Of a stretch of DNA of 64,000 nt, positions 3,201 through 64,000 are shown piece after piece (positions within the stretch are counted from its first letter, which is position 1; each line of letters begins with the position of its first letter). Under the pieces are notes generated by a model that saw nothing but the letters and a program-made list of their open reading frames with translations, did not search any database and was not told the origin of the DNA. The position numbers and the translations under genes were made by a program. The stretch is from a virus (Duplodnaviria > Caudoviricetes): positions 62-64,061 of IMG/VR virus record IMGVR_UViG_3300042896_000052; one strand, 5' to 3'.

Positions 3201-4080
3201 CCACTGCAGACTTGAACTCGCTAGTCAGCATATTGCTCAGGGCTTTAGTCCCCGAGGCGGTGAGTGATTTCTCTAGCGCGGCGCTAACGTTCTTCCCCTG
3301 CAACGCTGCGGACGTGGTTGCCATTAACGCATTACCCGCTACCGCTGCCTGCTCTGCGGTTAGCTTAACCCCTGTCGTCTTCTCAAACTCTGCTAACGAT
3401 TTTCCGACAATCTCGCTGGACTGGATGAGCGAGTTAATCAACGATGCGTTTACGTCGCCGTTAGCCAGCTTGGTAGCAACGAGGTTTTGAATGGTGTTGG
3501 CAACCTTCGGATATTCTTTCTGCAGGGTAGCAAACCCATCCACTTTACCTAGTACGACAGGTAACGCAGCGCCGACACCCCCGGTTATAAATGCTTGTAG
3601 CGGGTCACCCCCAGTAACTACCGCACCGGCAGCGGCACCTGCGCCGGCCCCAATGATTTGCCCGGCGGTTTTACCGAATGCTTCGCCAGCAGCTTGACCC
3701 GCAACTTCACCTACCGCAACAGAAACTACTTGCGCTGCGGACGAGATAGCCATCGTCTTTACGACTTCCCCGATATCCTTACCCTTTGCAGCGGCGGCGG
3801 CACCATCAATCAACGGAATAGCCCACGCGTTACCCGTGGCAATCGCGGCTACTTTGGCAATAGCCTTTACCGGATCGTCGGCAATTGCGGCGAGTGTGTC
3901 TTTTACGACCCCACCAACTTGCTCGGCAGCAACGCCTATTGCGTCGTAGACTTGGCTTGTGGCTTCCCGGACGGGAGTAGCGATTGAGCTAGCTACCCCA
4001 CCAACTTGCTCGGCAGCAACGCCTACGGCGTCGTAAATCTGGCTTGCGGCTTCCCGAAAAGGTGTAACAATTGCGCTCAT
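1..4080 (-). CDS. Giant Ala/Gly/Thr-rich internal virion (ejection-type) protein, 5' part; runs off the window edge and probably continues at 64000-63142
   Basis: Not in the ORF track because it has no stop in the window. ATG at 4080 overlaps the upstream TGA (ATGA). Translated by eye: MSAIVTPFREAASQIYDAVGVAAEQVGG..., apparently open for 1360 codons. Has Gly-zipper and hydrophobic segments and internal repeats. Position downstream of the tail nozzle is typical of ejection proteins. Confidence 0.85.
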   Translation of the reverse strand, partial: MSAIVTPFREAASQIYDAVGVAAEQVGGVASSIATPVREATSQVYDAIGVAAEQVGGVVKDTLAAIADDPVKAIAKVAAIATGNAWAIPLIDGAAAAAKGKDIGEVVKTMAISSAAQVVSVAVGEVAGQAAGEAFGKTAGQIIGAGAGAAAGAVVTGGDPLQAFITGGVGAALPVVLGKVDGFATLQKEYPKVANTIQNLVATKLANGDVNASLINSLIQSSEIVGKSLAEFEKTTGVKLTAEQAAVAGNALMATTSAALQGKNVSAALEKSLTASGTKALSNMLTSEFKSAVGSVSDTNTAAKAAGTKLQDNQLAQEAAVADYNNIRAQIDIRATEQTRLIGLDTAARAELTRLQATGASIATQNAQVAVINSTAAAANAYGTALNTDYTNTYKPALDAAQATVSTLQGQQPAIAQTYTDAVDRLGKTAAPIQTAIDAAEATANRELVPVLDPNFNAKEYAEINGLPTGTDPYTHWMNTGKDAKAPTNLKAAEATIGAERSRLVIAALESKGLDIATAPPEEVSKIIDYVDRQYGNNLKVLQGASIQDIVNGNTTTLATIATGSAPWSVEVVGSAYGDWHKPPAAEYTTPEGRRLATNDEFNAGTAELVLTDKGNPVWVMSDAATAPKIWNPDTNAYDATEITVRATEPSRAEIFAVATMADPENANILKPIAAALASGVGQQVETWANAYSLAFGTDMNNTAANLGKTMQDWGNANTPASVIAQMDATAKRMKEIAKTGSMFDQAKATAQLVKENPAAYFAYLGREGSQELLPIGGALVAGALATVLGAPVAAGVALATVVATAIDGIEVFGSSGKAIYDGKIKAGASESDARAAAVTGGMLSAATTAPANALANAAILVPYLRGVGAAANVALQGTKAVATSAAGEYIETFTQTLIQQKFIDPSAELDIGTANVQATFSAMIGAGTTGAIMAPSTVIGRTTTGEDLTLGGLRSGSQVADMSTLNPNMVVGTASDKETPLKLGDITISDAALGVKEQLTSSVPPNFAPAAIDSFIDPLVTDEAEVRQMLTDLGYTDPTQEEVNAYIGKTNEAASLGAVATKYDPLATTTQEAQQMMRDLGYNNMTDAEALSLAGKISEADAKAAVEAYVNPRQVTEAEARQTLTDLGYTNPTAEEVAQFVRSGADVTEAAVKAEAATYTDPRVTDAGEVQAAYAALGLAKPTQADIAKLVGVYSESELAGKATAGLEAARYNSIFEQLDNLSVGANQATLDAINLVKADFNSQLKSLGADVSGVKTDVAGVKTDVATLETKLTDAIAVNEAAGMTRDAATQKAIADVATNLGTTKADLLAQLGTTEAALNTKLAGVETALTANVKALETKLTDAIAVNEAAGMTRDAA

Positions 4081-4544
4081 GCTAGCTCACTTCCAAATGT
4101 AATATGAACTTCGTATGAGCCATCCCCCACGGGGTATATCCTAATGGTCTCGCCTTTAGTTATCGCCTTGCGCCTTTGTGCCTTAAATAGATTTAGAAAC
4201 TTTTCGCCCTCAAACATGGTGTACACATCGGTTATCCCAAGGTTAAAAAGCCGTTTAAAATAGTTGGTCCCGTTGTGTAGTAAATTATGTGCAGTATCTG
4301 CATTAAATGCCCGCATCCATATTCCTTTTGTTTTTGGGGACTCGGGTTTCACCGGGAGAACGTGCCCTAAAAACACAGTATTCCCAAACTGGACGATGTA
4401 CGCATCGTCCATAGCCATCTCCCTAGCTAGCACTAGTAGGGTATCCCGTAGCGAATGTTTCTTTAAATCTTCGGGTGAGATAGAGTTTGCAATGACCGTG
4501 GGGCCATCTAGCTTTTGCTTCCGACTATCAACTATCGTAGCCAT
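4077..4544 (-). CDS. Small alpha/beta protein, possible degenerate GNAT-like acyltransferase
   Basis: ORF 4077..4562; likely start ATG 4544 after GAGGA RBS. Occupies the slot of T7 gp13/P22 gp14-like genes between the nozzle and ejection proteins. Function is inferred from context only. Confidence 0.5.
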   Translation of the reverse strand: MATIVDSRKQKLDGPTVIANSISPEDLKKHSLRDTLLVLAREMAMDDAYIVQFGNTVFLGHVLPVKPESPKTKGIWMRAFNADTAHNLLHNGTNYFKRLFNLGITDVYTMFEGEKFLNLFKAQRRKAITKGETIRIYPVGDGSYEVHITFGSELA

Positions 4545-4545
4545 A

Positions 4546-5652
4546 CTATATCCTCGGGTCAAAAAGTGCTGCAGCGTATACGTTACCCATACCCGCAGCT
4601 AAACTTAAAAAAATCCCGGAAGTAGCAGGGACGTCGTGAGACAGGAACACGTTGTCAATGTCGGTTCGATTCGCTATACCGGGTATGATGCCACGATTCA
4701 AGTCATCTAGCAATAGTCCGGTCTCAAGGAGTCCGCTAGCTGCTAAGGTATGCCCGATTCGTTGTTTATACGAGGTTGCAACAAACTCCGGTAAGACCGA
4801 CAGGATACCCGCTTTCTCAGCATTATTGTTAGTGGCCGTACCAGTTCCGTGTGTCTTTACGATGTTCACTTCGCTAGGCGCTAGCTTGGCCACCATAAGC
4901 GCTCCCTCGATAGCTTTGCGGTATCCTTGCCCGTCAGCGCGTTGTCCCAGCGGGTTTGCAAAATCTTCTGCAGCGACGTATGCCCCAAGAAATTTAGCTC
5001 GCGGAGTATCAACTGGGTTTCTCTCAAAAATAGCGAGGGCCGCACCTTGCCCAATATTAAACCCAGCGTTTATGGGATCAAAGGCGGAAGGTTTTACGTT
5101 GCTCTCGTCCTTAACCAGCAGGCTAGCTTTTGCTTGCCCAAAGAACTCAAGGGTAGAGTTATTCACTGAGTCTTCCATACCGAGCACGATAAACCGATCA
5201 AACCCAAAATTGTCCATCAGGTTCTTCATCTCCATAAGCACTTTTAGGCTCGATGCGCAGGCGCTAGCGTCTGTGGATACGTAGTCAGACACCCCGAACA
5301 TACTGGCAACGCGCCCCGCATAGATGTTGGTTAGGCATACAAGCGGCAGCTTAAAGCGATAGTGCAGGGTTGAGTCCTCAGCATACTCTTTCTTTCCTCG
5401 AACACCCGCCCATCCTTGGGAGCCCCCCGCAAGGATAAAGCCGGTCTTACCCGCCACGGGGTTGTCGCTAACGTATGCAAGAAGTTCTGGCGTGATGACT
5501 TTATTCGCAAGGACGTGCGCCGGATATACCATCCCCGTCTTGGCTCGCTCATAGGTCTCTGGGAACCAATGTACCCGTTGCGGATACGGATGATCTAAGA
5601 TTACGTCAGTGTGTGCGGTAGACGCGGTAGCATAGCGGGACAGGTAAATCAT
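4546..5652 (-). CDS. Beta-ketoacyl-ACP synthase (FabB/FabF-like ketosynthase)
   Basis: Catalytic motifs DASACASS (Cys codon 5257-5259), KTHGTGT (His 4849-4851) and YKQRIGHTLAASG (His 4750-4752); also GFNIGQGA and C-terminal AGMGN (FGFGG equivalent). Confidence 0.93.
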   Translation of the reverse strand: MIYLSRYATASTAHTDVILDHPYPQRVHWFPETYERAKTGMVYPAHVLANKVITPELLAYVSDNPVAGKTGFILAGGSQGWAGVRGKKEYAEDSTLHYRFKLPLVCLTNIYAGRVASMFGVSDYVSTDASACASSLKVLMEMKNLMDNFGFDRFIVLGMEDSVNNSTLEFFGQAKASLLVKDESNVKPSAFDPINAGFNIGQGAALAIFERNPVDTPRAKFLGAYVAAEDFANPLGQRADGQGYRKAIEGALMVAKLAPSEVNIVKTHGTGTATNNNAEKAGILSVLPEFVATSYKQRIGHTLAASGLLETGLLLDDLNRGIIPGIANRTDIDNVFLSHDVPATSGIFLSLAAGMGNVYAAALFDPRI

Positions 5653-5930
5653 TGGATCATCCCCAATGCTTCTTCCGTTGTTACCGGGGACTGTGTTTTA
5701 TGCGCCTGCAAAAGATCATGCAATTCCCGCACAGTTGTGTATTTAAGATCCTGCATAACTGACTCTTCGATGCCGTACACATCCCCAAAGTACATGCTGA
5801 GCATGATGTAGTCTAAGCTATCCAGCCCTAAATTTACAAATTCATCATCTAAGGTATGCGCGAAGCTATCCTCTGCGCTGACAGGTTTAACGAGGGTGAT
5901 AACCCCGTTGAAAAGTTTAATAAAGTCCAT
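5649..5930 (-). CDS. Acyl carrier protein
   Basis: Acidic ~93-aa protein with LGLDSLD phosphopantetheine motif (Ser codon 5817-5819) and TTVRELHD helix IV. Likely start ATG 5930 after GAGGT. ATGA overlap with the ketosynthase. Confidence 0.9.
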   Translation of the reverse strand: MDFIKLFNGVITLVKPVSAEDSFAHTLDDEFVNLGLDSLDYIMLSMYFGDVYGIEESVMQDLKYTTVRELHDLLQAHKTQSPVTTEEALGMIQ

Positions 5931-5991
5931 AAGCACCTCGTATTGAAGGGACTTCATTATGGCGTAAAAGCGAAACTGAATGCCTCGGCAG

Positions 5992-6246
5992 TTAGACTTT
6001 TACTTTGAGCACGTTACCTGCAGTGGTATCGCGGTACACATCCCCCACACGGAGCGTAGCTAGTGAAGCTTCAGTTGGCAGGGTTTTGAGGTCTAAGTTT
6101 AACCCAGCTACGCTCAGTAACTGCACCGCATTTAAATCCACAAAATACAACCGCAAGACGTTAAGTAGTTTGCTCATGTGCCCAGCATCGTACTCCGCAG
6201 GGGCCACCGGTAAGTTGGGTGGGTTGCGGGTGTTGAACATCCCCAT
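5992..6246 (-). CDS. Small virion protein downstream of tail nozzle
   Basis: Likely start MGMFNTRNPPNLPVAPAEYD...LRLYF at 6246; structural operon context. Confidence 0.6.
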   Translation of the reverse strand: MGMFNTRNPPNLPVAPAEYDAGHMSKLLNVLRLYFVDLNAVQLLSVAGLNLDLKTLPTEASLATLRVGDVYRDTTAGNVLKVKV

Positions 6247-6247
6247 A

Positions 6248-8395
6248 TCAACCCCTCCGTCCGTCAGGGCGTATGTCAATCCGGGGTGAACCTAGCTGCC
6301 ACTGAACACCAAGCGCCGTAGAGTTAACCTTAATGGACATTTGCCGGCCGCGCACGCGAACAAATACTTGCCCGGTGAACTGCTCTACGGGAACTGTTGC
6401 CGACCTAACCACCGGAGCCGTGTTCGTACCGCCCACCGAAGTAGGATCGTTGTAGCCCGAGCCAGAGTTTTTAAGTGGTAGCAAGGTCATGGAGATCGCG
6501 GGGTTCTCGGCTGTAGACCCTCTGAATGTGACATCCGGCAGTATGCGGTTGATGAAAGCAAACTGGTGCCCATCCCCGATATCAAACTCTGAAGACGTAA
6601 TCGTGGCTTCGATTGGTAGCAACGCATTGATCCCATAGATACCATCATCCACACCATTCTCATGCTGTACGATATTGTTTGCATATGTTGCAGCTATCGG
6701 GTACTCCGTAATACCGCTGTCCAACCATGCGGTGCGCCCCATAGTCCCGTAGTACCACACATCCTCCACGTAGTTATAGATGACGTATTTGTCAACTACC
6801 GTAGAGTTCGCAGCGCAGTAAAACCACCAAATCTCGTTAAACCCCTCATTGGTTCCCGCAGTTACTTGGTACCGTTGCGTGAAGTTAAGGTCTCCGAACA
6901 CGTACTGGCGCAGGTCACATCGTAGTGTGGAGACCGTACCGTCGTACTTATAGAACTTGTCGATGCCCATCCAATAGGCTACCCCCGAGGCGACAATCGC
7001 ACTATTTGGCCCCATGCTAGACACGTTATCCGCCAAAAGGGTTGAGCCCCATACGACAGGAGCCCCAAGGAACTGCAGGGAGTACATCGCTTGGTCAGTC
7101 CAAACCAGAATCTCCTGCCGCACTTGGATTGCAGTGGATATCTCAGACCCATGCGATAGGCGCAAGTCCCCGGCTTGGTTCAATGCCGTTGGTGTCCAGT
7201 CGGTAATATTCTCTTGATCGCACCAGCGGATTAGCATCGGGTCAAGTACCGCGCTACCGATTGGATTGGCTCCAAATGCAAGGACGAAACGCGATACGTC
7301 CGACACAAGGATGTCCTGCACCGTAGTGGGCACCCCCGTTGCGCCGGGTAGTGACGTGACATTCACGGCCCGAACGGAAGGGCCTGTAGAAGAATACCAG
7401 TAGTACAAGCCACCATAGCGCGGCACAAACACCAAGTCTTCTCCGAAATTCATCTGCGACCACAGACGGAGTTCTGCGTTGCTGACCGTACCCACACCCC
7501 AAGAGCCATAGCCCCAAGGGCCGGCACCCCACCCGCGAGACGGAATTTGATACTCCGGACCCGTATTGATCTGGTAGGCTGCTAGAACAGCAGTGCCGCC
7601 GCCCGTAGCAGTGGATGTAGCTGCGGTAGCCGCAACAAACTCATAGCTGTCCGCATCCACAACCCGCGTTATCTGCTGCTCTTTGTTTATGTCCCCCGCA
7701 GGGACGCCCCCGGTAGCCGTAGCCCCGCTAAAGGTAACGAAGTCGTTGGCAATTGCGCCATGAGCGGTGTGCGTTACCGTGATGGTGTTGGAGGTATTTA
7801 CCGTTGCGAACGGATTAGCACCCAGTGTCTGCGCTTGAATAATGTATGCAGCAGCAACAGCACCACCGCCAGTAGCTACGGATGTAGCGGCAGTTGCGAC
7901 CAAGATATGGTACGTGTTGGCAGCTATCGGGCCAATAATCGTGTGCTGCTGACTCAAGTCAGCGGCTGGAACACCACCTACTACGCCGGAACCCGTGAAA
8001 GTAACTAAGTCCCCTATCTGCGCCCCGTGAGCAGCATCAGTTACCAGAATGTCGGTAGGTGCCCCTAGGTTGGTAGTAAACGGGTTGGTGAGTGCTGCGC
8101 TGTAGTCATACGTGCGGATTGGAGTGATGTCGAAATAGGAGCCACCACGGGCTACATAGAACTTCAAATCCGTACCTAGCCCAAGGTATTTAATGCTGCT
8201 AAGGGTTACCCACTGCCATAAGGAACGGCATACGCCGAGGAACGTGTTAGCGGAGACACGCATCCAACCGCCAATTTTCTCAGGTGTACCTTGGCGAAAG
8301 CGTATTTTGTCGGATTCGTACCACCCACCCTCTGTTGTGTAGCGGGTATTTTCACGGTTTAGGCCACTCTTAAGTGTAATCTTCTGTAATGGCAC
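6248..8395 (-). CDS. Tail nozzle / stabilization protein (P22 gp10 / T7 gp12-like) with two inserted beta domains
   Basis: 715 aa beta-propeller-like pattern (IRWCDQEN, EILVWTD, EIWWFY, RGRQMSIK); duplicated NPF-T...VT-AHGA--GD-VTF insert. Confidence 0.75.
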   Translation of the reverse strand: MPLQKITLKSGLNRENTRYTTEGGWYESDKIRFRQGTPEKIGGWMRVSANTFLGVCRSLWQWVTLSSIKYLGLGTDLKFYVARGGSYFDITPIRTYDYSAALTNPFTTNLGAPTDILVTDAAHGAQIGDLVTFTGSGVVGGVPAADLSQQHTIIGPIAANTYHILVATAATSVATGGGAVAAAYIIQAQTLGANPFATVNTSNTITVTHTAHGAIANDFVTFSGATATGGVPAGDINKEQQITRVVDADSYEFVAATAATSTATGGGTAVLAAYQINTGPEYQIPSRGWGAGPWGYGSWGVGTVSNAELRLWSQMNFGEDLVFVPRYGGLYYWYSSTGPSVRAVNVTSLPGATGVPTTVQDILVSDVSRFVLAFGANPIGSAVLDPMLIRWCDQENITDWTPTALNQAGDLRLSHGSEISTAIQVRQEILVWTDQAMYSLQFLGAPVVWGSTLLADNVSSMGPNSAIVASGVAYWMGIDKFYKYDGTVSTLRCDLRQYVFGDLNFTQRYQVTAGTNEGFNEIWWFYCAANSTVVDKYVIYNYVEDVWYYGTMGRTAWLDSGITEYPIAATYANNIVQHENGVDDGIYGINALLPIEATITSSEFDIGDGHQFAFINRILPDVTFRGSTAENPAISMTLLPLKNSGSGYNDPTSVGGTNTAPVVRSATVPVEQFTGQVFVRVRGRQMSIKVNSTALGVQWQLGSPRIDIRPDGRRG

Positions 8396-8403
8396 GGTTC
8401 ACC

Positions 8404-9371: not shown

Positions 9372-9372
9372 A

Positions 9373-23276: not shown

Positions 23277-23457
23277 TGAATCTTTCAAGTTTTTGTCGCA
23301 GGTCTTCTAAATCACGTTTTGCGAGGCCGAGACCGTGAATGACCCCGCAAATTCTTTGGTACTCACCAAAGTCCTTACAACTACCACGCGTCAGCGCGGC
23401 AGTCATGCTCATTACATGCTCGTGGTTCTTTTGTTCGAGCAAGTCAATTTCTGTCAT
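23266..23457 (-). CDS. Small conserved protein downstream of portal
   Basis: G..KDFGEYQRICGVIHGL motif. Confidence 0.65.
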   Translation of the reverse strand: MTEIDLLEQKNHEHVMSMTAALTRGSCKDFGEYQRICGVIHGLGLAKRDLEDLRQKLERFNDE

Positions 23458-53542: not shown

Positions 53543-53756
53543 CTCGGTACGCTTTATAACCCTGTACGGCATCCCGTACTTCATCCCGTGGGAGGACTTC
53601 CTCCCCGGGTATTCCGTCTTCCTCAAGACAAGCACCTGCGCCAGTGAGGTTCAATTAGCGTGCCGGGAGGCCGAGAAGTACCTCCAGATCACACTCCGCG
53701 CCAGACCCCGGTTGGAGTTTGGATATTACGGAGTGCGTATCTGGCGGCTATCTTAG
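53517..53756 (+). CDS. Small putative DNA-binding protein
   Basis: IPWEDFLPGYSVF...GVRIWR; likely ATG at 53517. Confidence 0.55.
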   Translation: MTLPPLLPDSVRFITLYGIPYFIPWEDFLPGYSVFLKTSTCASEVQLACREAEKYLQITLRARPRLEFGYYGVRIWRLS

Positions 53757-56700
53757 ATTTGCCCGGTCAGCTTTGGCTTCCCGCACCCACCCGACGAGTT
53801 CGATTTCCAACTGCTTGATCTCTTTCAGTTCGGCCTCCCGTTCGTCGGCACTCATCTCTTTGGCCCCCTCGACGCTGTTTAAGTACGTACGGTAGGCACG
53901 CGTGCGTTGCAGTTGCTCTAGCGTAGAGTTGATTGCCGACTCCAGCATCAGTTCGTCGGCATGTTCTTCGGCATAGACAACGGCGCGGTCCATGTCGGTC
54001 TGCATGAGGGAGTTGAGCGTTGCGTTTGCCTTGCCCATAGTCTCCCGCTCTTCGTAGAACTCAGTCATGCGGCGCGTGCCCACAGGGTCGTACATGTAGT
54101 TGCTGAGCAACGCCCACTTATGCAGGGGACGATCGACCCGGGTAGGGTTCATCAAGCTATCGGTTACGGATGTAAGGATGGCTGCAGTTGACCCAAAGTA
54201 CCCAAGCAGGGCGTTGTCAACCATGATGGGGGAGACTTCTACGCCCACAACATCTCGGCTAAAAGTAACTATCGCCTTGGCAAGCTCCGAAGTTGTTGCA
54301 GTGACCCGTTCGCTCTTGTCCATCTGCTGCTGGTGGAATCCCTCCAACGCCCGGCCCGTTAAGAACGACTTGTTGGCCCATGCCTCTATCAACGGTTTTG
54401 CAGCCTGTGGAATAGGGGTAACGCGTCCAACGTATTGCTCCATGATGTAGCTTGCGGCCGTACGGACGGCTTCAAAGGCTTCTTGCTCCTCCGGAGTTCC
54501 TTGCCTACGCATGTACTCAACAACGCGCTCGGGAATAACTTTGAATATCGCTCCGAGTTCCCCGGGGACTGCAAGCTTCATGCCGCCGACAATCCAGTTA
54601 CCGTCGCGGGTACGCAAGTCCATGTTCTTGTATTCTTCGTCGTCATCATCCTTGCTCAGTGCATAGAGGGAAGACAGTGCAGTTGCAATGGCTGCACGAC
54701 CCCAGAACATGCGGCGTGCTTGTGCGCGGCCTACGGAGGAGCTAGAGTCCTTGCCCGAGGCTGCACGGTACAGCACATCCATACCCTGTATGTATGCGTT
54801 AAAGAACGGAATGGTGGTAACCATAGCGCCAACAACTTCGTTGTTACCCCGGCGGCGGAAGTTAATAAACTCTCTGGCCCGAGTCTGGGATAGCAGTTGG
54901 TCCCCGGACTCCTTCATGGTCTGGTCGTATATTGCTTTACGCACCGCTAAGTCCGAGGCCCGAGTAATACCGTCAAGTCTATGCAGTAGGGTTCCAACTT
55001 TACCCCGTGGTACGTACCCTAAATCTTTCAGTAGTGACGATGCGGGCTTACCTGCTTGGAAGTCATACTCGCCCGTGAGGCCCATAGCGCCGAACTCCCG
55101 TACGCTGGGGTGCTGTATCCCACGGAGTTCTGCCAATGCTAGTTTCGGGAAGTTAGTCAGCGTCATGCGTAACAATGCGCCGGGGTTCTTCACACCAGAA
55201 GTCATGATGGCACGCTGCACGTCGTCGGTTACCTGCTTCAAAGCAAAGGGAGGTAGTGCGGTGATTGACTTGCGCAGCACATTGGAGAACGCACCCAACT
55301 GCAGCAGCCAGCCGGCCTTCGGTACGTTGAGATCTTTGAACGCCATCACATCGTACTTACTCGGCATTTCCCAGTAGTTCATTACGCCGTTGACATACGC
55401 GCCCACTACGTTGGGTTTGCCTTGATCGCTAAGTCCCAAGGCTTTAGCAGAGGTAACCTTCTCCAAGCTGCGCAGCGTATTTATGGTGGCATCGGTCTTA
55501 ACTACTTGGCCAAGCATCCAGCCCAACGTGTCCATGTAGTTGTTAAAGACGTTACCTACAGGGAGTTCGATTGCACCTTTAAGCTCTGGGAGCTTGCCAA
55601 CTTGCGCCAACCCTTTGCCGCTAACCCGCTTAACCTTGCTGAATGCAGCCAACCCCTCGGGGGATATCCTATCGAACGGCACGTACCCAGCAACTTCACG
55701 CCAGTCTTTACCCTGCTCAGGCGAGAGCCGACCCACGGCCACCATGTGGTCAACCAAGGCGATACGGGCGCTATCCATCAGGTCTGCGATAGCCTGTAGT
55801 TCTGGGTTTGCTTTGAGTTCCGCCAACATATTGTCTATCTGCTGGTCAATAGATAGGTTGGAAGTCTTGTCAATCTTGTGCAGAACAAACCCAGCGCCGG
55901 TTTTGTTGGCGGTACGCATACCGTCTAGACGCACGCCCTCAAGGATTCGGCTACCGACCTCGTTAGCTTCCTCAAAGGACAGTCCGTTTGCTTCGCCCCA
56001 TGTCTTAAGCTTAGCGTACACGTCGGCCGGGGCACCTACACCCGCAACCTTTTTAACTTGCCACAGACCCGTTGTTGGCTCCTTTGCAATGCCGCCCACC
56101 TGCAAAAACTCCAGCAGCATTTTGGTGTAGTCCTGTGCTTGACGGTACAGGCCCATAGGGTTCAGTTCCCCTAAACTATCGCGTACTGCGCCATCAAATT
56201 TAGCAGTCAACCGAGACTCAATCGTTGCAGCAATATCGGCTACCTGTGTGCGGAACTTGGTTACGTAATCCAAGGTAGGGTCAGACTTGACCGCATCTAC
56301 TAGCCGGGTCAACAGCGACTTCTCAAGGGGGGATACCGGACCCGCCCCTGCGACAAGCGCTTTGGTAGTAGTGGAGATCGCAAACTGTTTACCCGTTGCA
56401 GTACTTGCCTCGGATAGAGCGCCCCGCTTTACGCTAGTGAGTTCGCCGCCGACGCGAAGGAGTTCACTCAGTGCGGTATCTGCTTTGGGTTTAAGTCCCA
56501 GCATGTCGCGTACGAGGGTTACAAACTTGCCCCAAGCAGTAGTGCCTTTGTACGGGATGCCCTCCAAGTATGCCTGCATCTCCCTATTGGAGAGTGCCCA
56601 TGTGAGCATTTCGTCGGCATCGGCCAGAGCGTTGTGGCGCTTATCAAAAGCCCGTCGCTCAAAGTCTGTCAGCTTCTCGCCGGATGCTACGCGGGTGTTG

Positions 56701-59519
56701 AAGTGCTGTATCACTGCATTGGTTACAGAGTACAACTCGTCAACAGTCTTGCCAAGCGCGGTGCCACTAGCTGACTTTAGATTCCCCACATAAATAGTTC
56801 CGATCGTAGCCGCGTGAATTAACTCATGCAGTATGACCTCGTTTGACGTACCAGTCTGTTCCCCGTTATTCGGGTGATTAAGCATTATGCGAACACTAGA
56901 CCCGGCCTTTGCAGTTGGCTTGGTGTAGGACGTCACCCCTTTCCCACGAGTGAGGCGGCGATCTGGGGCGGTAACCGTGACCTTACCTAGAGCTACACCC
57001 GCAGCTTCTAACTCTCGAAGCGTAGCAGCCACCCTCTGCGCAATAAGGCGTTGGTCAGGGTCGGCCATGTTTTCCGCAGCCCAATTTGCCACTTCAAGCA
57101 CTGTCTTACCGTCGATTGCTCGCACAGTGGGGTCTTTCTCGCGGCCTTCTGGCACCTCTGCTTCGGTCGTTTCTAGTACGGGTGTTTTCAACGGTGCAGA
57201 GGTGTCGGCTTTTGGCTCAGCTTTTGGAGCTTCGGGCTCAGCTTTTGGCTCAGCTTTTGGAGCTTCGGGCTCGGCTTTTGGCTTTGCGGCAGCAGCTTCG
57301 CGCTTTGCAAGTTCTGCTTCGCGTTTCTCTACGTCTGCTTCGCGCTTGGCTACCGCGTCTGCTTCTTTCTTTGCAATATCTGCTTCGCGCTTGGCCAGAG
57401 ACTCAAGGCGCTTGCGCTCTTTCTCTTGGCGTACTTCGCTAGCTACCGCTGCTTTACCTGCAGAGGCTTCTTCTTTCGTACCGAGGGCCCACTCAGGCGT
57501 CACGTACTCAGGTTTTTCCTTAGCTACCGGTGCTGCTTCCTCAACGAGGTCTGGTGCATCTTGCTTAACTAACTGGTCGAACATCCCGCCGCCAATTTTT
57601 GGCATGGGTGGTAGCTCGGTCTTTTGCACTGCCGGTAGCTCGGGAACCTCAAACTTCATTGCCGGGGCGGGGGCCTCCGCAAGTGGTGTCAGTGCAGTAC
57701 TGACTGCTCCTTTAGGTGTAGCTCGCGGCTTAGCAGGTTTGCTAGTAGGAACCAATCCGAGTCCGACAGGTGCTGCAGGTTGTCCGGGGGTGATGGGTGC
57801 GACAGCAGCGGCGGGGGCTGGTATGCCAGTGGCGGCAGTAGGCTCGATAGGTACGCCCACGCTTGGCTTATCTCCAGTGAGTTCAGGCAACTGCTCAGCA
57901 GCAGGCGTTGGGGGAGTTGTGACACTTGGGGTCTCCTGTGGGGTAGCCGTAGCTATGATTTCTTTAAGCGCAGCAGCTACGCCGGGTTTCTTGGTCAGTA
58001 TAGTTGGGTCTGCGGCAACCATGTCCCGCACTTGCTCGGGTGTCTTACCGGTTACGTTGGCTTCCATCCATGTACGGTTCGCCTGCGACATGGTACCGAA
58101 CTGGCGGACTTCCGTAGCTGTAATGGCTCCGGGAGTCGTGGGCGCAACGGTAGGCGCAACAATAGGCGCAACGGTAGGCGCAACAGTTGGAGCCGCAGTT
58201 GGAGCCGCAGTTGGAGCCGCAGTAGGTGAAGTTGGGCGATCACCTGCGGTTCTACGCAGTGGGAGTTTCTGCTGGCCAGCGGCTTCCAACTCGGCCATAG
58301 TGGGCGCTATACCTGCGTCTTGCAGGACTTCAGTAGTCGCGGGAAGGTCTGCGGAAATTACGTCGGCTAGCCCTTCCGCTGGCGCAGCTTCTGCCTTTGG
58401 CTCGACGGGGGGTCGCACTTCACCAAATAAATCAGGCTCGGATTCCGCAAGCGCAGGGAACCGTTTTACACCTTCTGCCTCTGCCGTGCGGGTTTCCCGC
58501 TCCTCTCGAATTTCTTTTTCACCCCGGGTTTGTAGCTCCTGCCGCATGGCTTTGAGTTGCGTCATCTCTTCCGGCGTTGCTGACCGTGTATCAGCCAACT
58601 GCGAGATACGAGAAACTTCCTTAGCCAACTCTGGGTACGGACGGTCCGCGAGCGGTACGGGTATTGGTTCTGTAGCAGGCGCTTCGGATACTGGCGGTTG
58701 AGCAGGGGCAGGTTGACCAGCACCCCCACGCGCCCGACGGCCGATGGCCATATCAGTAAGCCCTTGGATAAGCGCACCCACACCGCCACCATACGCACCT
58801 GCTTCGCCCACACCCTCCAAAACTTGCTGCTCGGGCTTGTATAGACCTTTGGCAATAAGATTCTGCGCAGCGTTGGACGCGGCTTCTTGTGCAGCTTCGG
58901 CACCGCCCGTGGCTAGGGCCCGGCGTATCTGGCTAGCAATACCGTCGGTAAGGGGTTTGCCTAACGTACTAATGAACTTGAAGACGGGCAGCATCTCCGT
59001 AGCCCCGACTGCAGCACCTAGTGCGGTAGCGCCAGCGCGTTGACCGCCAGTTGCGGTACTCTCTTCGGCACGGGTTCTGGCTTCGCCTGCTCCTGCAGCA
59101 ACGCCCAATGCGCCTGCGGCAACACGTCCGGCTACACCTGCGGGGCCGGCAAGGAAGAATGGAACCGTGGAGCCGAGGGCCTCGCCGCTCTTACGAGCTA
59201 TGGAGTCTTCGTACCCCGGGGCAGCAGCAAAGGGGGCTTTAGCAGCGCCTGCAACGCTCTTGATTCCCGCCCTAGCCGACTTCTCCATCTCCTCGGGGAG
59301 GATAGCCGACGCACCGGTAGCCGCACTTTCAAGCAGTCCGATAGCACCTGCGGGTATACCCTTAGCAACTTCCTTTGCACTTCCGAGGAACGTACGCTCT
59401 GGGGGAGGTGCGGCAGATTGAGCGAGAACTCGTTTGACCGTTGCCTGTACTACACTAGGGTCGGTACCGTCGGGAAATTCTAAAACTCGTCCGTCGGCCA
59501 GTTGCGCTTCAATCGCCAT
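53748..59519 (-). CDS. Large polyvalent internal virion protein (zincin-like motif + LPD38-like C-terminus)
   Basis: 1923 aa; Gly-zipper N-terminus, Pro-rich linker, HELIH (56814-56828), YVPF.R, INF.RRG, IPFFNAYIQG, N.SF.TG. Confidence 0.85.
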   Translation of the reverse strand: MAIEAQLADGRVLEFPDGTDPSVVQATVKRVLAQSAAPPPERTFLGSAKEVAKGIPAGAIGLLESAATGASAILPEEMEKSARAGIKSVAGAAKAPFAAAPGYEDSIARKSGEALGSTVPFFLAGPAGVAGRVAAGALGVAAGAGEARTRAEESTATGGQRAGATALGAAVGATEMLPVFKFISTLGKPLTDGIASQIRRALATGGAEAAQEAASNAAQNLIAKGLYKPEQQVLEGVGEAGAYGGGVGALIQGLTDMAIGRRARGGAGQPAPAQPPVSEAPATEPIPVPLADRPYPELAKEVSRISQLADTRSATPEEMTQLKAMRQELQTRGEKEIREERETRTAEAEGVKRFPALAESEPDLFGEVRPPVEPKAEAAPAEGLADVISADLPATTEVLQDAGIAPTMAELEAAGQQKLPLRRTAGDRPTSPTAAPTAAPTAAPTVAPTVAPIVAPTVAPTTPGAITATEVRQFGTMSQANRTWMEANVTGKTPEQVRDMVAADPTILTKKPGVAAALKEIIATATPQETPSVTTPPTPAAEQLPELTGDKPSVGVPIEPTAATGIPAPAAAVAPITPGQPAAPVGLGLVPTSKPAKPRATPKGAVSTALTPLAEAPAPAMKFEVPELPAVQKTELPPMPKIGGGMFDQLVKQDAPDLVEEAAPVAKEKPEYVTPEWALGTKEEASAGKAAVASEVRQEKERKRLESLAKREADIAKKEADAVAKREADVEKREAELAKREAAAAKPKAEPEAPKAEPKAEPEAPKAEPKADTSAPLKTPVLETTEAEVPEGREKDPTVRAIDGKTVLEVANWAAENMADPDQRLIAQRVAATLRELEAAGVALGKVTVTAPDRRLTRGKGVTSYTKPTAKAGSSVRIMLNHPNNGEQTGTSNEVILHELIHAATIGTIYVGNLKSASGTALGKTVDELYSVTNAVIQHFNTRVASGEKLTDFERRAFDKRHNALADADEMLTWALSNREMQAYLEGIPYKGTTAWGKFVTLVRDMLGLKPKADTALSELLRVGGELTSVKRGALSEASTATGKQFAISTTTKALVAGAGPVSPLEKSLLTRLVDAVKSDPTLDYVTKFRTQVADIAATIESRLTAKFDGAVRDSLGELNPMGLYRQAQDYTKMLLEFLQVGGIAKEPTTGLWQVKKVAGVGAPADVYAKLKTWGEANGLSFEEANEVGSRILEGVRLDGMRTANKTGAGFVLHKIDKTSNLSIDQQIDNMLAELKANPELQAIADLMDSARIALVDHMVAVGRLSPEQGKDWREVAGYVPFDRISPEGLAAFSKVKRVSGKGLAQVGKLPELKGAIELPVGNVFNNYMDTLGWMLGQVVKTDATINTLRSLEKVTSAKALGLSDQGKPNVVGAYVNGVMNYWEMPSKYDVMAFKDLNVPKAGWLLQLGAFSNVLRKSITALPPFALKQVTDDVQRAIMTSGVKNPGALLRMTLTNFPKLALAELRGIQHPSVREFGAMGLTGEYDFQAGKPASSLLKDLGYVPRGKVGTLLHRLDGITRASDLAVRKAIYDQTMKESGDQLLSQTRAREFINFRRRGNNEVVGAMVTTIPFFNAYIQGMDVLYRAASGKDSSSSVGRAQARRMFWGRAAIATALSSLYALSKDDDDEEYKNMDLRTRDGNWIVGGMKLAVPGELGAIFKVIPERVVEYMRRQGTPEEQEAFEAVRTAASYIMEQYVGRVTPIPQAAKPLIEAWANKSFLTGRALEGFHQQQMDKSERVTATTSELAKAIVTFSRDVVGVEVSPIMVDNALLGYFGSTAAILTSVTDSLMNPTRVDRPLHKWALLSNYMYDPVGTRRMTEFYEERETMGKANATLNSLMQTDMDRAVVYAEEHADELMLESAINSTLEQLQRTRAYRTYLNSVEGAKEMSADEREAELKEIKQLEIELVGWVREAKADRANLR
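57207..57285. repeat. 33-bp coding repeat (KAEPEAPKAEP)
   Basis: ggctcagcttttggagcttcgggctc repeated. Confidence 0.85.
58140..58225. repeat. 12-bp coding tandem repeat (TAAP/TVAP x7)
   Basis: ggagccgcagtt and ggcgcaacggta units. Confidence 0.85.
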
Positions 59520-59530
59520 AGATCACCTCA

Positions 59531-61246
59531 TCAGATAGGGTTCCCCTTTGCATCAAACTGCATCCGGGTATTTCCGCCGGGGCTTTTCGCGCCGGGGGCT
59601 GCGGCAATTGTACCGCCGAGCCGCTTAGTTTCCGCATCTACCGCAGCAGCTAGCATCGCAGGGTCCTTATACTTCATCCCGAGGCTTGGGCTCGACTTCA
59701 TCAAGGCCATAATATTGTCGTACGCTTTGTCTCGGATAGAGGCTTGCTGGTCGGGCTTACCCGCGCCTTTAATCTGCCCGATAGTCTCTAAGTAGGCTTG
59801 GCCAGCTTTTGGATCTTTTGCGGACAGTCGCATGTACTCGGTGTACATACGCTCTGTTTCCCCCGGTTTATTTGCAGAGGCGGCTTGTATACGGGCCACA
59901 TCAAGCGTTGTTAGGCGTTGGAGTGCTGCTTCCGCTGCACGCTGCTCTACACCTGCACCTACGCCCAAGGCGGTGAGACGGTTGCGCTCTGTGTCGCTAA
60001 ATGCAGTTTTAGCAGCGGAGAGTCCTTCTGTGCGGCCTTTGTATTCGGAGGTAGCCTCACCTCGACGTGCGTTTTCACCGCCGGACAGCAAGCGGTTCAT
60101 CTCTGCAGCATGGGCAGCATCCGCAGAACGTTCGCCTTGCACAGCACCAAGATACGCAGGGCCAAATCCGCCCATACCACCTTTAGCGCCGCCACCGAGT
60201 ACGGCCAGCATACGCTCAAAGTCACGGTCTTTCTTACTGCCTTGGTACTGCTCTTCCATTGCCGCAGTGCGCTGTTTCAAGCCGGCATCTGCAGGGGTCT
60301 TCAGTTCCTCGGGCATCATCGTAGCGCGTTCGGCCATGATTCCTTCGGGCGTTGGAGCGGTGCCGGGGGTAGCTGTTTCTTTAGCCAGTTGTGCCATCAT
60401 GCCAGTTGGAGCGGCACCGGGCGCAGCACCTGCAACCATTGGAGGTTTTGGCATTGCAGATGGAAGACCCGGACCCGTGGGAGTCGCACCGGGCATAGCC
60501 GGAGGTTTAGGCGCAGCACCGGGCATAGCAGGAGGCATAGCACCTGCGGCTGGCAACGCTCCAAGTCCCGCTGGAGCTTCAGGAACCGTGGGTTCACGTT
60601 GCTCACCGCCGGGAGTCATACGAGGTTTGTAAAAGTCCTGCATCCGTTTCTCTTGCAGGGGGCTCGTAGTAGATGGGCTTTTAAGTCCTGCAGCCCGACC
60701 TAACCCTGCGGCGAGTGCTTTATTCTCTGCAATGATTGCCGCACGCTCTTCCTGTGTCCGGGGGTTGCCGTCTTCATCAAAGTCCGGGTTCTTAGGCTTA
60801 GGCGGCACAATGTCCCCCGCCGCAAACGCAACGACACCACCTTCGGCGTAGTCAGTCATCCGAGAATCCATAGGGAGTTGCGCTATACCGCCAGACGCCA
60901 TCATAGTAGGTTGGGCTTGTGCTTGCGGCTGTGGGGCAGGGATACCTTCTGGCACGGCCTGCGGTGTTTGTTGAGCTTGCTGCGCCATCATCTGCTGAGC
61001 TTGCTGTTGTTTCTGCTGGTCGAGGGCCATAAGACCCGCCTTCTGGTCAACCTGCTCAGCCACGCTTCGTTGTGCGCCTTGGGCAGCACCGCTAGCTAAG
61101 CCAGCCTTCTCGCGGGAGGCCATCTTCTGGTTCAGTACCGCCAGTGCTAAGTAGGCTGGCACGTTAGGGTTCGTACCCTGTGCAAGCTTCTGCAACTCGG
61201 GCACACCCATCATCTCAAGATCATGCTGTTGTTGTACGATATTCAT
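59531..61246 (-). CDS. Internal virion / ejection protein
   Basis: Gln/Pro-rich; MASGG and YAEGG motifs; position among ejection genes. Confidence 0.7.
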   Translation of the reverse strand: MNIVQQQHDLEMMGVPELQKLAQGTNPNVPAYLALAVLNQKMASREKAGLASGAAQGAQRSVAEQVDQKAGLMALDQQKQQQAQQMMAQQAQQTPQAVPEGIPAPQPQAQAQPTMMASGGIAQLPMDSRMTDYAEGGVVAFAAGDIVPPKPKNPDFDEDGNPRTQEERAAIIAENKALAAGLGRAAGLKSPSTTSPLQEKRMQDFYKPRMTPGGEQREPTVPEAPAGLGALPAAGAMPPAMPGAAPKPPAMPGATPTGPGLPSAMPKPPMVAGAAPGAAPTGMMAQLAKETATPGTAPTPEGIMAERATMMPEELKTPADAGLKQRTAAMEEQYQGSKKDRDFERMLAVLGGGAKGGMGGFGPAYLGAVQGERSADAAHAAEMNRLLSGGENARRGEATSEYKGRTEGLSAAKTAFSDTERNRLTALGVGAGVEQRAAEAALQRLTTLDVARIQAASANKPGETERMYTEYMRLSAKDPKAGQAYLETIGQIKGAGKPDQQASIRDKAYDNIMALMKSSPSLGMKYKDPAMLAAAVDAETKRLGGTIAAAPGAKSPGGNTRMQFDAKGNPI

Positions 61247-61255
61247 GGGTGATCC

Positions 61256-63130
61256 TTATGGCGTAGTGGTAGGTGTTTGGCCTAAGCCAGCCAGTGTTTT
61301 ATAGAGCGATTGCAATCCACTAATCTGTGAGGAAAGATCGCTGACCCCTGTGGTATTGGCAGTGGTGGCATTTGTTGTAATCGGCAGGCCGGTCATCAAG
61401 TCCTTCTGGAACTGCGCCATCTTACCGGGGTAATCACGTTGCTCTTCGAACTGTGCTCTATCGGCTGCAATACCTTCGCCTTCAATGCCGCGTTGCGTAG
61501 CGCCCATACCTGCAAGGTCTTGCAAAGACTTCAAACCGTAGTCTGCGCTGTAGGTGCGTGAAGCTTCTGTAGACTTTTCGGCACCCAAGCGACGTTCTTG
61601 GTCCGCGTTGTACTGCGCCATCGCTTTGTCGTATGCAGTCTGGTAGCCAGTTCCCAGCGTCTGGGTCTGTTGCGCCAGTAAGTTCTTGTTACCTTCGGAC
61701 TCCATAACCGCCTGACGGCTACCGCCAAAAGCTCCAGCTTTAGCTAGGCGACCTGCATCCCCCATTCGGGTGATCTCTGCTTGGCGGCTCATTTCCTTCA
61801 TCTGCGGGTCTAGTGCAGACTGGATGTATGGGTTCATGTACTGCTGCGCTTGCTCTTGGCCAAACGTACCACCGGAGAACTGCGTTGGGGTAAACCCTTG
61901 CTGGGCTAATCCGCTGATACCTGCAAAGGCTTGCGCCTGCAATGGGGATGAGCCGGCAGTAAGGGGTCCGCCGTACGATTGATATGGTGCGTTAGCAAAC
62001 GCTTGGCCCTTACCCAAGTAGTCCGTTACGTACTCCCCCGCCCACGGAGATAGTTGCGACGAGGAGGACTGGCCGAGACTAGGTACCGCAGTAGCTGCGG
62101 AGGCAGCGGGGGTTGTTGTCCCCGCACCAGTACCGGTAGCGCCGGGAGTTGTTACCAAGGCACCTTCTGCATACCCTTGCACAGAGCCGCCAGCAGCGTA
62201 GGCTGCAGCAAGACCACCGGGCATAAACTTATCCGGGTCGATTTCTTTACCTTGCTCGGAATTACCAGTACGGGCCTTACGGATGCGGTCCATCATCTGG
62301 TGCAGTTTGTCCGCTCCGGCTTCGGAGTTCCCGTTGCCAAGGTGCGATACAACGTCGGCAGGGATAACAAACTCACCGTGGCTCAGTGCTGCGTCTTGCT
62401 CACCGTCGATGCTGGTCGAAATCTCATCCGCCATTCCGTCGGTATTTCCTGATAAGTACCTACCTTTCGTAACTTCTGTGCTACCGCCCTGCGCAAAACC
62501 AGTGGCTTGCGGTACCGGCATGAGAGAGGCTACGCCAGAAGCTGCAGTGGGGGCCACTTGCGCGGGAGGGGGTGCGGATTCCCAAGGCGTTCGCATGGCG
62601 GGTATTGCGGCGGCAGGCGCTGCGGGTCTAGCGTTGTATGCGGACATAATTCCCTGTGCTTGTGCGCCGGAGGCTGATTGTGCGCCCGCTAGCGCTCCTG
62701 CATCACCGCTGGCAGAGTATTTTGGATCAGTAAAGTATTGACGGCCGGCCGAACCGGGAACCCGGCCAGTATCGGTATACGGCACTTGCTGACGAGTTAA
62801 ATCCAACTTGGGGACTGGCTTGCTGTAACCCCCGGTCTGCACAGTATTACCGCCCATCGCGCCGTAGGCTCCCAATGCCAGCGTACCGAGCTTAGCAAGG
62901 TCAACTTTTCCGTCGGACATGACAGTGCTTTTAAGTAAGGAAACTGCCTTATCCCCAAAACCTGAAAGCAGTTTAGCGATAGTGGGATTTGTGGAGGTTC
63001 CGGACTCGATAGCATCTAGCACATCAGCGTCTGTAGGGGCAGTTTCTGGGTCATACCCACCACTTGCATCGCCGTAGTCTGTATAGAACTGTTCCCAGTC
63101 AAAATCATCCGTTGCGGTAGTCTCATCCAT
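61256..63130 (-). CDS. DNA transfer / ejection protein
   Basis: DGMADEI...LSHGEFVIPADVV domain; QYMNPY and GAFGGSRQAV motifs. Confidence 0.75.
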   Translation of the reverse strand: MDETTATDDFDWEQFYTDYGDASGGYDPETAPTDADVLDAIESGTSTNPTIAKLLSGFGDKAVSLLKSTVMSDGKVDLAKLGTLALGAYGAMGGNTVQTGGYSKPVPKLDLTRQQVPYTDTGRVPGSAGRQYFTDPKYSASGDAGALAGAQSASGAQAQGIMSAYNARPAAPAAAIPAMRTPWESAPPPAQVAPTAASGVASLMPVPQATGFAQGGSTEVTKGRYLSGNTDGMADEISTSIDGEQDAALSHGEFVIPADVVSHLGNGNSEAGADKLHQMMDRIRKARTGNSEQGKEIDPDKFMPGGLAAAYAAGGSVQGYAEGALVTTPGATGTGAGTTTPAASAATAVPSLGQSSSSQLSPWAGEYVTDYLGKGQAFANAPYQSYGGPLTAGSSPLQAQAFAGISGLAQQGFTPTQFSGGTFGQEQAQQYMNPYIQSALDPQMKEMSRQAEITRMGDAGRLAKAGAFGGSRQAVMESEGNKNLLAQQTQTLGTGYQTAYDKAMAQYNADQERRLGAEKSTEASRTYSADYGLKSLQDLAGMGATQRGIEGEGIAADRAQFEEQRDYPGKMAQFQKDLMTGLPITTNATTANTTGVSDLSSQISGLQSLYKTLAGLGQTPTTTP

Positions 63131-63141
63131 ATTAAATCCTT

Positions 63142-64000
63142 TTAGCGTATAGCATCTAACAGGTCGTCGAGGTACCCGCCTGATGCGATTTTAACTGTCC
63201 CTTGCGGGGTCTGTGTAGTATTTGTAGCTTTCTGCTTGGCATAGCCCCCGAAGAAGCCCACGTCTAGCGGCTGTGAGAAGTCAAACTGCGGTCCGGCTTG
63301 CACAACTTCCACCGGCTGGTTAAGCGTTGCGGCTTGCGCCTGTGCCTGCTGCTGTAGTCCACCCATAAGTCCTTGAATCCCCGTCATCATCTGCCCGCGA
63401 AGCTGTCCAGTTTGCGTAGCCTTGAGGTTTGCTGCAGCTTGTGCACGCTGGGCTTCCGCAGTGGCGGCGGCTTGGGCACGCTGGGCCTCCGCAGTGGCGG
63501 CGGCTTGGGCTTGAGCTTTTGCAACGTCGGCTTGTCTAGCGGCTTCAGAAGCATCTAGTTGCCCGTAAAGACCAGTGGACTCCCACTTGAACGGCTGGGT
63601 ATTGACCCCGCTAACGACGTTTGCTAAGAAGTCGTAGTCCGTCTGGTTAACTACACCGTCTTTGTTAGCGTCAAACTTGGGGTCTATCTGCTGGGTACCC
63701 TGCAACTGATTCTGCAGGACGTTGAGATCCGCTTGTGTTACTGGGGAAGCCTTAGTTCCAATAAGCTTGTTTACTTCATTGAACGCTTGTTGAGTTGCTT
63801 CGGCTTGAGTTTTACCTTGGGCAACGAGCTCATCGACCCGGGCGTTCATGGTAGCCGTGGCCCCAGTAATCTGTCCGGTCAGTGCAGTCTCTACACCTGC
63901 AAGCTTGGTGTTTAGTGCCGCTTCCGTAGTTCCAAGCTGGGCCAGCAAGTCAGCCTTAGTGGTTCCCAAGTTCGTAGCAACGTCTGCAATAGCCTTTTGC
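63142..64000 (-). CDS. 3' part of the giant internal virion protein that starts at 4080
   Basis: Frame is open to the window edge and shares the 207-bp repeat; DANKDGVVNQTD Ca-binding-like loop; IASGG near the end. Confidence 0.8.
   Translation of the reverse strand, partial: QKAIADVATNLGTTKADLLAQLGTTEAALNTKLAGVETALTGQITGATATMNARVDELVAQGKTQAEATQQAFNEVNKLIGTKASPVTQADLNVLQNQLQGTQQIDPKFDANKDGVVNQTDYDFLANVVSGVNTQPFKWESTGLYGQLDASEAARQADVAKAQAQAAATAEAQRAQAAATAEAQRAQAAANLKATQTGQLRGQMMTGIQGLMGGLQQQAQAQAATLNQPVEVVQAGPQFDFSQPLDVGFFGGYAKQKATNTTQTPQGTVKIASGGYLDDLLDAIR

Follow-up and report, generated by a model that had tools for sequence, protein, structure and literature searches.

A GNAT-fold gene in front of the giant ejection-type protein of uncultured short-tailed phages and its optional acyl carrier protein and ketosynthase neighbors

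We analyzed a small gene on a 64,000-nucleotide (nt) stretch of viral DNA (IMG/VR record IMGVR_UViG_3300042896_000052, Caudoviricetes, positions 62 to 64,061; hereafter "the window" for the whole stretch), which lies directly in front of the gene of a giant ejection-type protein. Its product of 155 amino acids (aa) is predicted to adopt the fold of the GCN5-related N-acetyltransferases (GNAT), and its family is a core gene of a phage group, located always just before the giant protein and present in 123/127 loci. In the window, the gene follows genes for an acyl carrier protein (ACP) and a ketosynthase (KS). This ACP–KS pair is an optional add-on to the GNAT, and the co-occurrence is one-way. 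The reading we tentatively favor, and consider possible rather than probable, is that the GNAT acts as a transferase on the ejection protein, for which the ACP–KS pair might represent an optional donor supply.

The fold assignment is based on an AlphaFold2 (AF2) model of the 155-aa protein computed from a 58-sequence alignment (A1), which reached a mean predicted local distance difference test score (pLDDT) of 93.9 and a predicted template modeling score (pTM) of 0.87. The modeled elements (H14-21, H24-29, H32-43, E48-53, E56-63, E74-81, H85-101, E106-112, H114-125, E133-140, E143-149) follow the GNAT order of three helices, three strands, helix, strand, helix and two strands. Foldseek searches against the PDB yielded 16 matches at E<=1e-3 (best 1.6e-4), and the matches listed are GNAT acetyltransferases. 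In addition, a Foldseek-independent fold search over 48,161 chains (VIA) was used, and 50/50 of the matches listed there belong to the GNAT superfamily (Z 8.9-10.6, 113-133 aligned residues). These listed VIA matches include the N-terminal acetyltransferases RimI and Naa10/50/80 (Z 9.1-10.3), GNATs without coenzyme A (CoA) donors (TofI, FeeM, FemA), and acetyltransferases of small molecules and antibiotics, whose Z equals that of the protein acetyltransferases; since rows within ~1 Z are tied, a GNAT subfamily cannot be picked. The GNAT fold anticipated for positions 4077..4544 was therefore recovered by AF2, Foldseek and VIA alike, rather than a different fold. Across 144 diverse members, the conserved polar residues are S7 (97%), E42 (93%), N55 (99%), N81 (98%), D83 (100%), N87 (99%), N91 (89%), H61 (76%) and R78 (78%, plus 12% K), accompanied by L12, G54-N55-T56, F58, T84 and G103, and the family is basic with a median isoelectric point (pI) of 8.9. 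In the model, N81 to N91 reach from where strand 4 ends into the first turns of helix 3, the region in which GNATs hold their cofactor.

On the sequence level, Pfam assigned 0 families at E<=1 to the window protein and no match of any kind at E<=1 to 58 aligned members (PF11090, PF11039 and PF00583 included), while PHROGs gave a chance-level match only. When the family profile was searched against all PDB sequences, no more than 5 chains were retrieved, all of them weak (E 0.41-1.4): four of Serpin A12 and one of a hypothetical protein. A word-indexed search with the GNAT found one near-identical protein, scans of viral contigs revealed 48 loci with relatives, and the profile built from these 48 loci detected the members in the 123 of 127 fetched loci. 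An exhaustive profile search over 1.84 billion cluster representatives extended the family to 462 representatives at E<=1e-3 and 289 at E<=1e-10; among the matches listed (150 of 462), proteins measure 104-225 aa, mostly ~150 aa, with no larger fusion. Considering homologues in this number of loci and cluster representatives, the small open reading frame (ORF) is not a chance frame. Language-model neighbors of the GNAT all scored <0.9 and are taken as leads only. Against GenBank phages, blastn of positions 3000-6300 gave zero matches and tblastn a single record with the gene, a metagenome assembly; neither KS nor GNAT occurs in any cultured phage of the GenBank phage collection.

All genes of the GNAT region are located on the minus strand, in the order 715-aa virion protein, 95-aa protein, ACP, KS, GNAT and giant protein, followed by proteins of 624, 571 and 1923 aa (Table 1). 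The succession from the 715-aa protein to the giant protein, with ACP and KS optional, recurs in 123 loci. The GNAT ORF starts with ATG, with the sequence GAGGA 6 nt upstream. A 1-nt spacer separates the KS stop codon (4548..4546) from this ATG, the GNAT TGA overlaps the giant-protein ATG (4080) as ATGA, and a further ATGA overlap joins ACP and KS. Because of these three junctions (ATGA, 1-nt spacer, ATGA), ACP, KS, GNAT and giant protein constitute one translationally coupled run. The close contact to the giant protein is a general feature, as its start lies -3 to +6 nt from the GNAT end in 113/114 loci. A promoter and terminator scan of positions 3500-9500 gave no signal above shuffled expectation. 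The original prediction had described an alpha/beta ORF of ~155 aa that follows the ketosynthase and whose stop overlaps the giant-protein ATG, and ORF, spacer, ATGA junction and AF2 model agree with this description.

Judged from its sequence, the KS appears catalytically intact. It carries both Pfam ketoacyl-synt domains (N 1.8e-9, C 5.5e-16), and its Cys, His and His could be aligned to FabF (1OX0) with matched ACxSS, HGTxT and GHxL positions, the aligned part covering only residues 103-341 of the 368 aa (FabF 155-395). The ACP contains a PP-binding domain (PF00550, 1.1e-5) with the DSL serine kept; D37, S38 and D40 are invariant in 26/26 sequences (alignment A2), and the conserved start probably lies at 5930, which corresponds to 93 aa. 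In the 64 other ORFs of the window, no FabD, FabG, FabZ, FabI or other Fab enzyme, thioesterase, acyltransferase or 4'-phosphopantetheinyl transferase (PPTase) was found. Consequently, the neighboring GNAT or host enzymes are the only evident exit for an ACP-bound acyl chain, and the GNAT is the only candidate off-loading enzyme adjoining the orphan ACP–KS pair. When the GNAT (A1) and the phage ACP (A2) were modeled as a complex, the score was 0.09 versus a mark of 0.32, which decides neither way.

Starting from the KS, the association with the GNAT is tight. The best 80 of 187 KS relatives in viral contigs were taken as loci, and in 76 of the 78 informative ones the KS is directly followed by the GNAT, at a distance of up to 60 nt in 75 loci and of 646 nt in one; two of the 80 end at the KS and are uninformative, and in two (L004, L078) the ACP–KS pair is found in another setting. 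Pairwise identities of KS and GNAT correlate with a Spearman coefficient of 0.81 (3081 pairs), compared to 0.42 for either of them versus the 715-aa protein, and therefore KS and GNAT were mostly inherited as a block, whereas the tail gene was swapped. Besides that, the KS tree conflicts with the tree of the 715-aa protein, for which 77 distinct rows of full length were used, without truncated copies and without the GenBank record: placing the two deep 715-aa clades on the KS tree takes 9-10 changes, of which at least 7-8 are forced. The window itself is an exception to block inheritance. Its KS has its nearest relatives in L002, L003, L006 and L005 (67-75% identity), the GNATs of these four loci are only 24-29% identical to the window GNAT, and the latter is closest to L013 and L016. 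Separately, one locus (L086:3983-4294) was seen to carry an ACP alone, without KS, between tail gene and GNAT; it is the sister of the KS-positive L062 on the 715-aa tree and looks like a recent KS loss. Altogether, block inheritance of KS and GNAT is compatible with a pathway but no proof of one.

The giant protein begins with M-S-A-I-V. Among 84 distinct N-termini from 114 loci, residue 2 is G (38), S (33), A (10), P (2) or I (1), residue 4 is V or I in 71/84, the next positions are more variable, and KS-positive and KS-negative phages do not differ. Across the group, the N-terminus is conserved as M-[G/S/A]-x-[V/I], which is a lead rather than a test: small second residues favor Met removal and are substrates of N-terminal acyltransferases, but they are common in proteins generally, and the sequences compared are homologous to one another. 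As a curiosity only, the giant proteins of three KS-less loci (L111, L095, L100) start with M-G-C-S-S; Gly2-Cys3 is the classic dual-acylation context in eukaryotes. The only strongly hydrophobic stretch of the window's giant protein comprises residues 771-815. Residues 7-58 (window 3900-4080) contain, by eye, two copies of a ~28-residue unit (~7-29 and 36-58), and the giant proteins of relatives show similar acidic V/G/D-rich repeats. The ORF leaves the window start after 1360 aa; the record of 64,061 nt has identical 59-nt ends, and joining them yields 1646 aa with a stop at window position 63142. The 59-mer occurs again at position 208, which places the record ends within a tandem repeat (207 nt, 69 aa) of the giant gene, and therefore the repeat number and the exact length of the protein are uncertain. 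A separate 21-nt repeat (2.1 copies) is located at 277-320.

The position of the GNAT corresponds to a known slot of short-tailed phages. The window shows the podovirus layout of tail tube/nozzle, small protein and ejection proteins, and the order at the comparable slot of T7 is gene 12, 13, 14, 15. A paper on Cobaviruses reports that SIO1-like phages have a GNAT at this place, which it regards as the equivalent of T7 gp13 (PMC6775973). We folded a protein 97% identical to T7 gp13 with 38 homologues (pLDDT 93.3) and obtained the same element order as in the 155-aa protein; 50/50 of the PDB matches listed for this gp13-type model belong to the GNAT superfamily (Z 10.2-12.1), RimJ, RimL and Nat enzymes among them. 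Of the 50 viral structural neighbors listed, 12 are common to both models, two of which are named internal virion protein A, and a DUF2824 protein is among the viral neighbors listed for the gp13-type model. The earlier statement that this podophage slot holds GNAT-like genes therefore agrees with the gp13-type model, the shared viral neighbors and the Cobavirus paper. In terms of sequence, hhalign found no relationship of the GNAT family to T7 gp13 (probability 0.2) or to the 38-sequence gp13 alignment (0.1). Despite shared fold and position, the 155-aa protein consequently represents a third sequence family: in structure and position it corresponds to podovirus internal virion protein A, but its sequence family is its own. 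Membership in PF11090, the T7 gp13 family, was considered as well and is ruled out by the hhalign values and by the lack of any PF11090 match in the 58 members.

How could these elements work together? In the favored reading, the GNAT would use an acyl thioester as donor and modify the N-terminal part of the giant protein, which is translated right after it. Where the cassette is present, as in the window, a dedicated acyl-ACP would be assembled by the phage's own ACP and intact condensing KS and then passed on to the GNAT; as no reductase or dehydratase is encoded, the product would probably be a 3-oxoacyl-ACP. Phages without the cassette would draw on host donors. A pathway from ACP and KS via the GNAT to the ejection protein is plausible; catalysis, donor, target and a membrane-anchoring purpose are what we infer. 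A more specific proposal, which we regard as unlikely, is that the main ejection protein becomes lipidated at its N-terminus in a large group of uncultured short-tailed phages. Once Met has been removed, the core GNAT would acylate the Gly, Ser or Ala that is then exposed, and many such phages would use their private ACP and KS to provide a dedicated (3-oxo)acyl donor.

Several observations weigh against a role of the GNAT as an ACP-fed transferase on the ejection protein, and most of them concern the cassette. In 44/123 loci the GNAT occurs without a KS, and the 715-aa gene and the GNAT lie only 504-1089 nt apart in KS-less loci, too close for one; the loci were drawn by similarity to the window GNAT, and hence this share is not a population estimate. 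One KS-less record (L109; 61.7 kb, rated 100% complete) has neither KS nor ACP, with 4/4 KS-positive complete or near-complete records matched as positive controls. For the ACP, alignment A2 was used as probe in place of PF00550, which missed all four controls. Four other KS-less records, 45-70% complete, also contain no KS. On the 715-aa tree, explaining KS presence takes 6 changes, well-supported branches force at least 4 of these, and KS-positive phages are found on both sides of the deepest split; because of these at least 4 changes, the cassette is dispensable. In ten loci (L004, L078 and eight from a scan with the L004 KS), ACP–KS resides in the replication module, always following an SNF2 helicase-type gene, with no GNAT of this family within any of them. 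The KS sequences of these loci form one clade; the ORFs after the KS (78-139 aa) are helical or helix-turn-helix-like by eye, without a Pfam match in L134, and the GNAT profile matched 0/5 of the records of five such loci, which is uninformative at 11-34% completeness. The annotated locus L134 (2719-3090, 5340-8122) encodes a 4'-phosphopantetheinyl transferase ~3.6 kb upstream of the ACP. The co-occurrence of this gene with KS and ACP, which the original prediction had named as a test, held from the KS to the GNAT (76/78) and failed in the reverse direction (44 loci and a complete genome).

The protein itself provides further points of this kind. GNATs typically bind their cofactor with a loop Q/R-x-x-G-x-G/A between strand 4 and helix 3. 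This loop was not found after strand 4 of the 155-aa protein, where the segment N81-A-D83-T84-A-H-N87 places T84 and a variable residue at the motif glycine positions. No His, Cys, Tyr or Lys is invariant among the 144 members (H61 reaches 76%), and several of the residues that are invariant (the Gly-Asn hairpin and the Asn/Asp/Thr before the helix) could have a structural role only. The 15 KS-less rows of A1 also keep all six of its invariant residues, and a comparison of GNAT columns with KS presence offers only 4 independent contrasts, so that significance is unreachable. Finally, the correlation of 0.81 needs no functional tie, as adjacent genes co-inherit anyway.

Much of this would fit a GNAT-fold protein that is a non-catalytic assembly factor or chaperone loading or holding the ejection proteins, next to an ACP–KS pair that is an unrelated accessory metabolic insert and lies by chance at the boundary between tail and ejection modules, an explanation we consider somewhat less likely than the favored reading. 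It would account for a core GNAT whose invariant residues do not change without the cassette, for a cassette that was gained or lost at least 4 times and also resides in the replication module, and for the missing canonical cofactor loop and catalytic-type invariant residue. The gp13-type protein likewise shows a GNAT fold, with no R-x-x-G-x-G loop after strand 4 in the consensus of its alignment (A3), and PF11090 is named "probable scaffold protein" in Pfam. A published phage ACP was interpreted as a host-metabolism gene (PMC11705849). Furthermore, the GNAT is basic, whereas the first 60 residues of the giant protein hold 6 D/E versus 3 K/R. On the other hand, a pseudo-enzyme is not obviously expected to keep D83 at 100% and N81, N87 and N55 at 98-99% in 144 representatives. 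An ACP–KS pair without a release enzyme would be hard to use, it is coupled to the GNAT and not merely near it, and the divergence of the KS follows that of the GNAT much more closely than that of the gene on its opposite flank.

The GNAT could also be an active transferase with another target, be it a small molecule, a different protein of the virion or a component of the host envelope, and perhaps be packaged and ejected itself. The fold with its conserved polar residues and the equal Z of small-molecule/antibiotic and protein acetyltransferases would allow this, but the fixed position and coupling to the giant protein in 113/114 loci and the lack of anything else in the operon that varies with the GNAT make it quite improbable. 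Even less likely is an action upstream of the ACP, with the GNAT as a loading or decarboxylating enzyme that primes the phage ACP for the KS. A GNAT-type loading domain exists in curacin synthase, the genes are adjacent, and a viral cluster with a malonyl-CoA decarboxylase GNAT domain is among the weak language-model neighbors (0.83, lead only); yet the GNAT is unchanged in 44 loci and a complete genome without phage ACP, and it is placed after the KS, not before the ACP. That the 155-aa protein is a true, diverged RTX toxin-activating acyltransferase (HlyC/CyaC/ApxC) is hardly credible. Size, GNAT-type fold and a large presumed membrane-active protein next door are similar, but the 58 members gave no Pfam match at E<=1, the PDB profile search returned the 5 weak chains only, and no His is invariant. 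HlyC proteins are GNAT-type enzymes that use an acyl-ACP donor, lack the canonical CoA loop and have a conserved catalytic His (and Asp). In the family studied here, H61 reaches 76% and D83 is invariant, positions that only a structural alignment to ApxC could relate to those of HlyC. The absence of ApxC/HlyC from the 50 matches listed by either PDB fold search says nothing, as the rows are tied. Similarity to HlyC had not been claimed at the outset; none was found by Pfam or profile search, which weakens the original interpretation. By analogy, an HlyC-like logic is at most what might apply; the protein would not be an HlyC family member.

Around the cassette and elsewhere, further features of the window were recorded (Table 1). 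The 95-aa protein is also present in KS-less relatives and is therefore not part of the ACP–KS cassette. It shares with its homologues an N-terminal motif (APALP..YD...FN.VLR.YF), followed by a C-terminus from none to ~240 aa; in some relatives the gene is split into 63-aa and ~110-aa genes, and the family resembles an anchor with exchangeable tail-fiber-like domains. The 1923-aa protein (53748-59519, minus strand) contains an LPD38 domain (8.9e-24), and its residues 890-1021 show a short, weak match to the virion RNA polymerase family phrog_2206 (1.7e-9); its length is roughly half that of the N4 virion polymerase. Matches to the SU10 adaptor family at 14212-14880 and 15738-16439 (minus strand; 2.5e-18 and 6.2e-9) indicate an SU10/kuravirus-like rather than a T7-like tail architecture. 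Between portal and head genes, a 137-aa protein (22878-23288, minus strand) matches the GroES co-chaperonin family phrog_3188 (5.5e-7).

Table 1 Features of the GNAT region and its surroundings in the window.
Feature	Position	Strand	Evidence
155-aa GNAT-fold protein (predicted), first gene of the ejection-protein run	4544..4077	-	ORF, ribosome-binding site, overlaps, AF2 model, family conservation
368-aa shortened FabF/FabB-type ketosynthase (KS)	4546..5652	-	Pfam ketoacyl-synt N and C; Cys-His-His aligned to FabF 1OX0
Acyl carrier protein (ACP)	5649..5957	-	PP-binding domain, invariant DSL serine, ATGA overlap with KS
Giant ejection-type protein, N-terminal 1360 aa	1..4080	-	ORF; homologues after the GNAT in 114 loci
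Giant protein, C-terminal remainder	63142..64000	-	ORF continued over the junction of the record ends (circular assembly)
95-aa protein, conserved N-terminus and variable C-terminus, cassette neighbor	5992..6279	-	Also in KS-less relatives
715-aa virion structural protein, tail-tube/nozzle position, upstream bound of the module	6248..8395	-	phrog_3287 (3.7e-64), synteny
Three large proteins (624, 571 and 1923 aa), presumed further internal/ejection proteins	53748..63130	-	Downstream of the giant protein

The literature offers little precedent for this arrangement. In the papers covered, subscription-only ones excepted, we found no account of an ACP–KS pair beside a GNAT or internal virion protein and no description of an acylated phage ejection protein, and no biochemical role was found assigned to the small gene preceding the ejection proteins of short-tailed phages (T7 gp13 and analogues). 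A term search of a review on ejection proteins (PMC8954989) found neither acylation nor this gene class. Both the T7 type and the new family are predicted to have an acyltransferase fold, and in more than 75 uncultured phages the GNAT gene is translationally coupled to a private, apparently intact ACP and KS. The label "assembly factor" hence becomes a testable idea, namely covalent acylation of the ejection protein before packaging. Should this hold, the outcome would be a virion maturation step of a new kind, a new viral use of fatty-acid-synthase parts and the first catalytic role for the T7 gp13/P22 gp14 class of genes. If false, the GNAT would be a pseudo-enzyme and ACP–KS just another accessory metabolic insert; both claims are limited by the one-way co-occurrence.

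Compared with known systems, the 155-aa protein is closest in position to internal virion protein A, which includes T7 gp13 (PF11090), the GNAT gene pc40 of SIO1/Cobaviruses and DUF2824. These are likewise small proteins (138-160 aa), and T7 gp13 shares the location between the tail-tube/nozzle gene and the ejection proteins as well as the predicted GNAT fold. In contrast to the window, the annotated gene 11-15 region of T7 contains no ACP or KS, and the next gene encodes the 196-aa gp14 rather than one ~1,600-aa protein. To the HlyC/CyaC/ApxC systems, the likeness consists of a small GNAT-type protein beside a large presumed membrane-active protein, of a possible acyl-ACP donor and of the missing canonical CoA loop; they differ in that no sequence similarity and no invariant His connect the window family to them and in that HlyC uses the host ACP, whereas the window phage has an optional private ACP and KS. 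With type II fatty acid synthase, the phage ACP shares the PP-binding domain and DSL serine of AcpP, and the phage KS the Cys-His-His residues and both Pfam KS domains of FabF/FabB, but the KS is shorter, FabD, FabG, FabZ, FabI and PPTase were not found, and the genes lie in a virion operon. Points of likeness to the N-terminal acyltransferases of the GNAT superfamily (RimI/RimJ/RimL, NatA-type, N-myristoyltransferase) are the structural matches to RimI and Naa10/50/80 and the small residue after Met in the candidate target (81/84), although these matches are tied with many other GNATs within ~1 Z. Animal viruses are known to have N-myristoylated entry and membrane-penetration proteins, and an acylated ejection protein, if it exists, would be their bacterial-virus counterpart. 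In gene arrangement, the locus can be likened to NodF/NodE/NodA of rhizobia, where a dedicated ACP and KS are found beside an acyltransferase that puts a special acyl chain on its target. NodA is not a GNAT and acylates an oligosaccharide; what the phage locus would share with it is a dedicated ACP and KS adjoining a putative acyltransferase.

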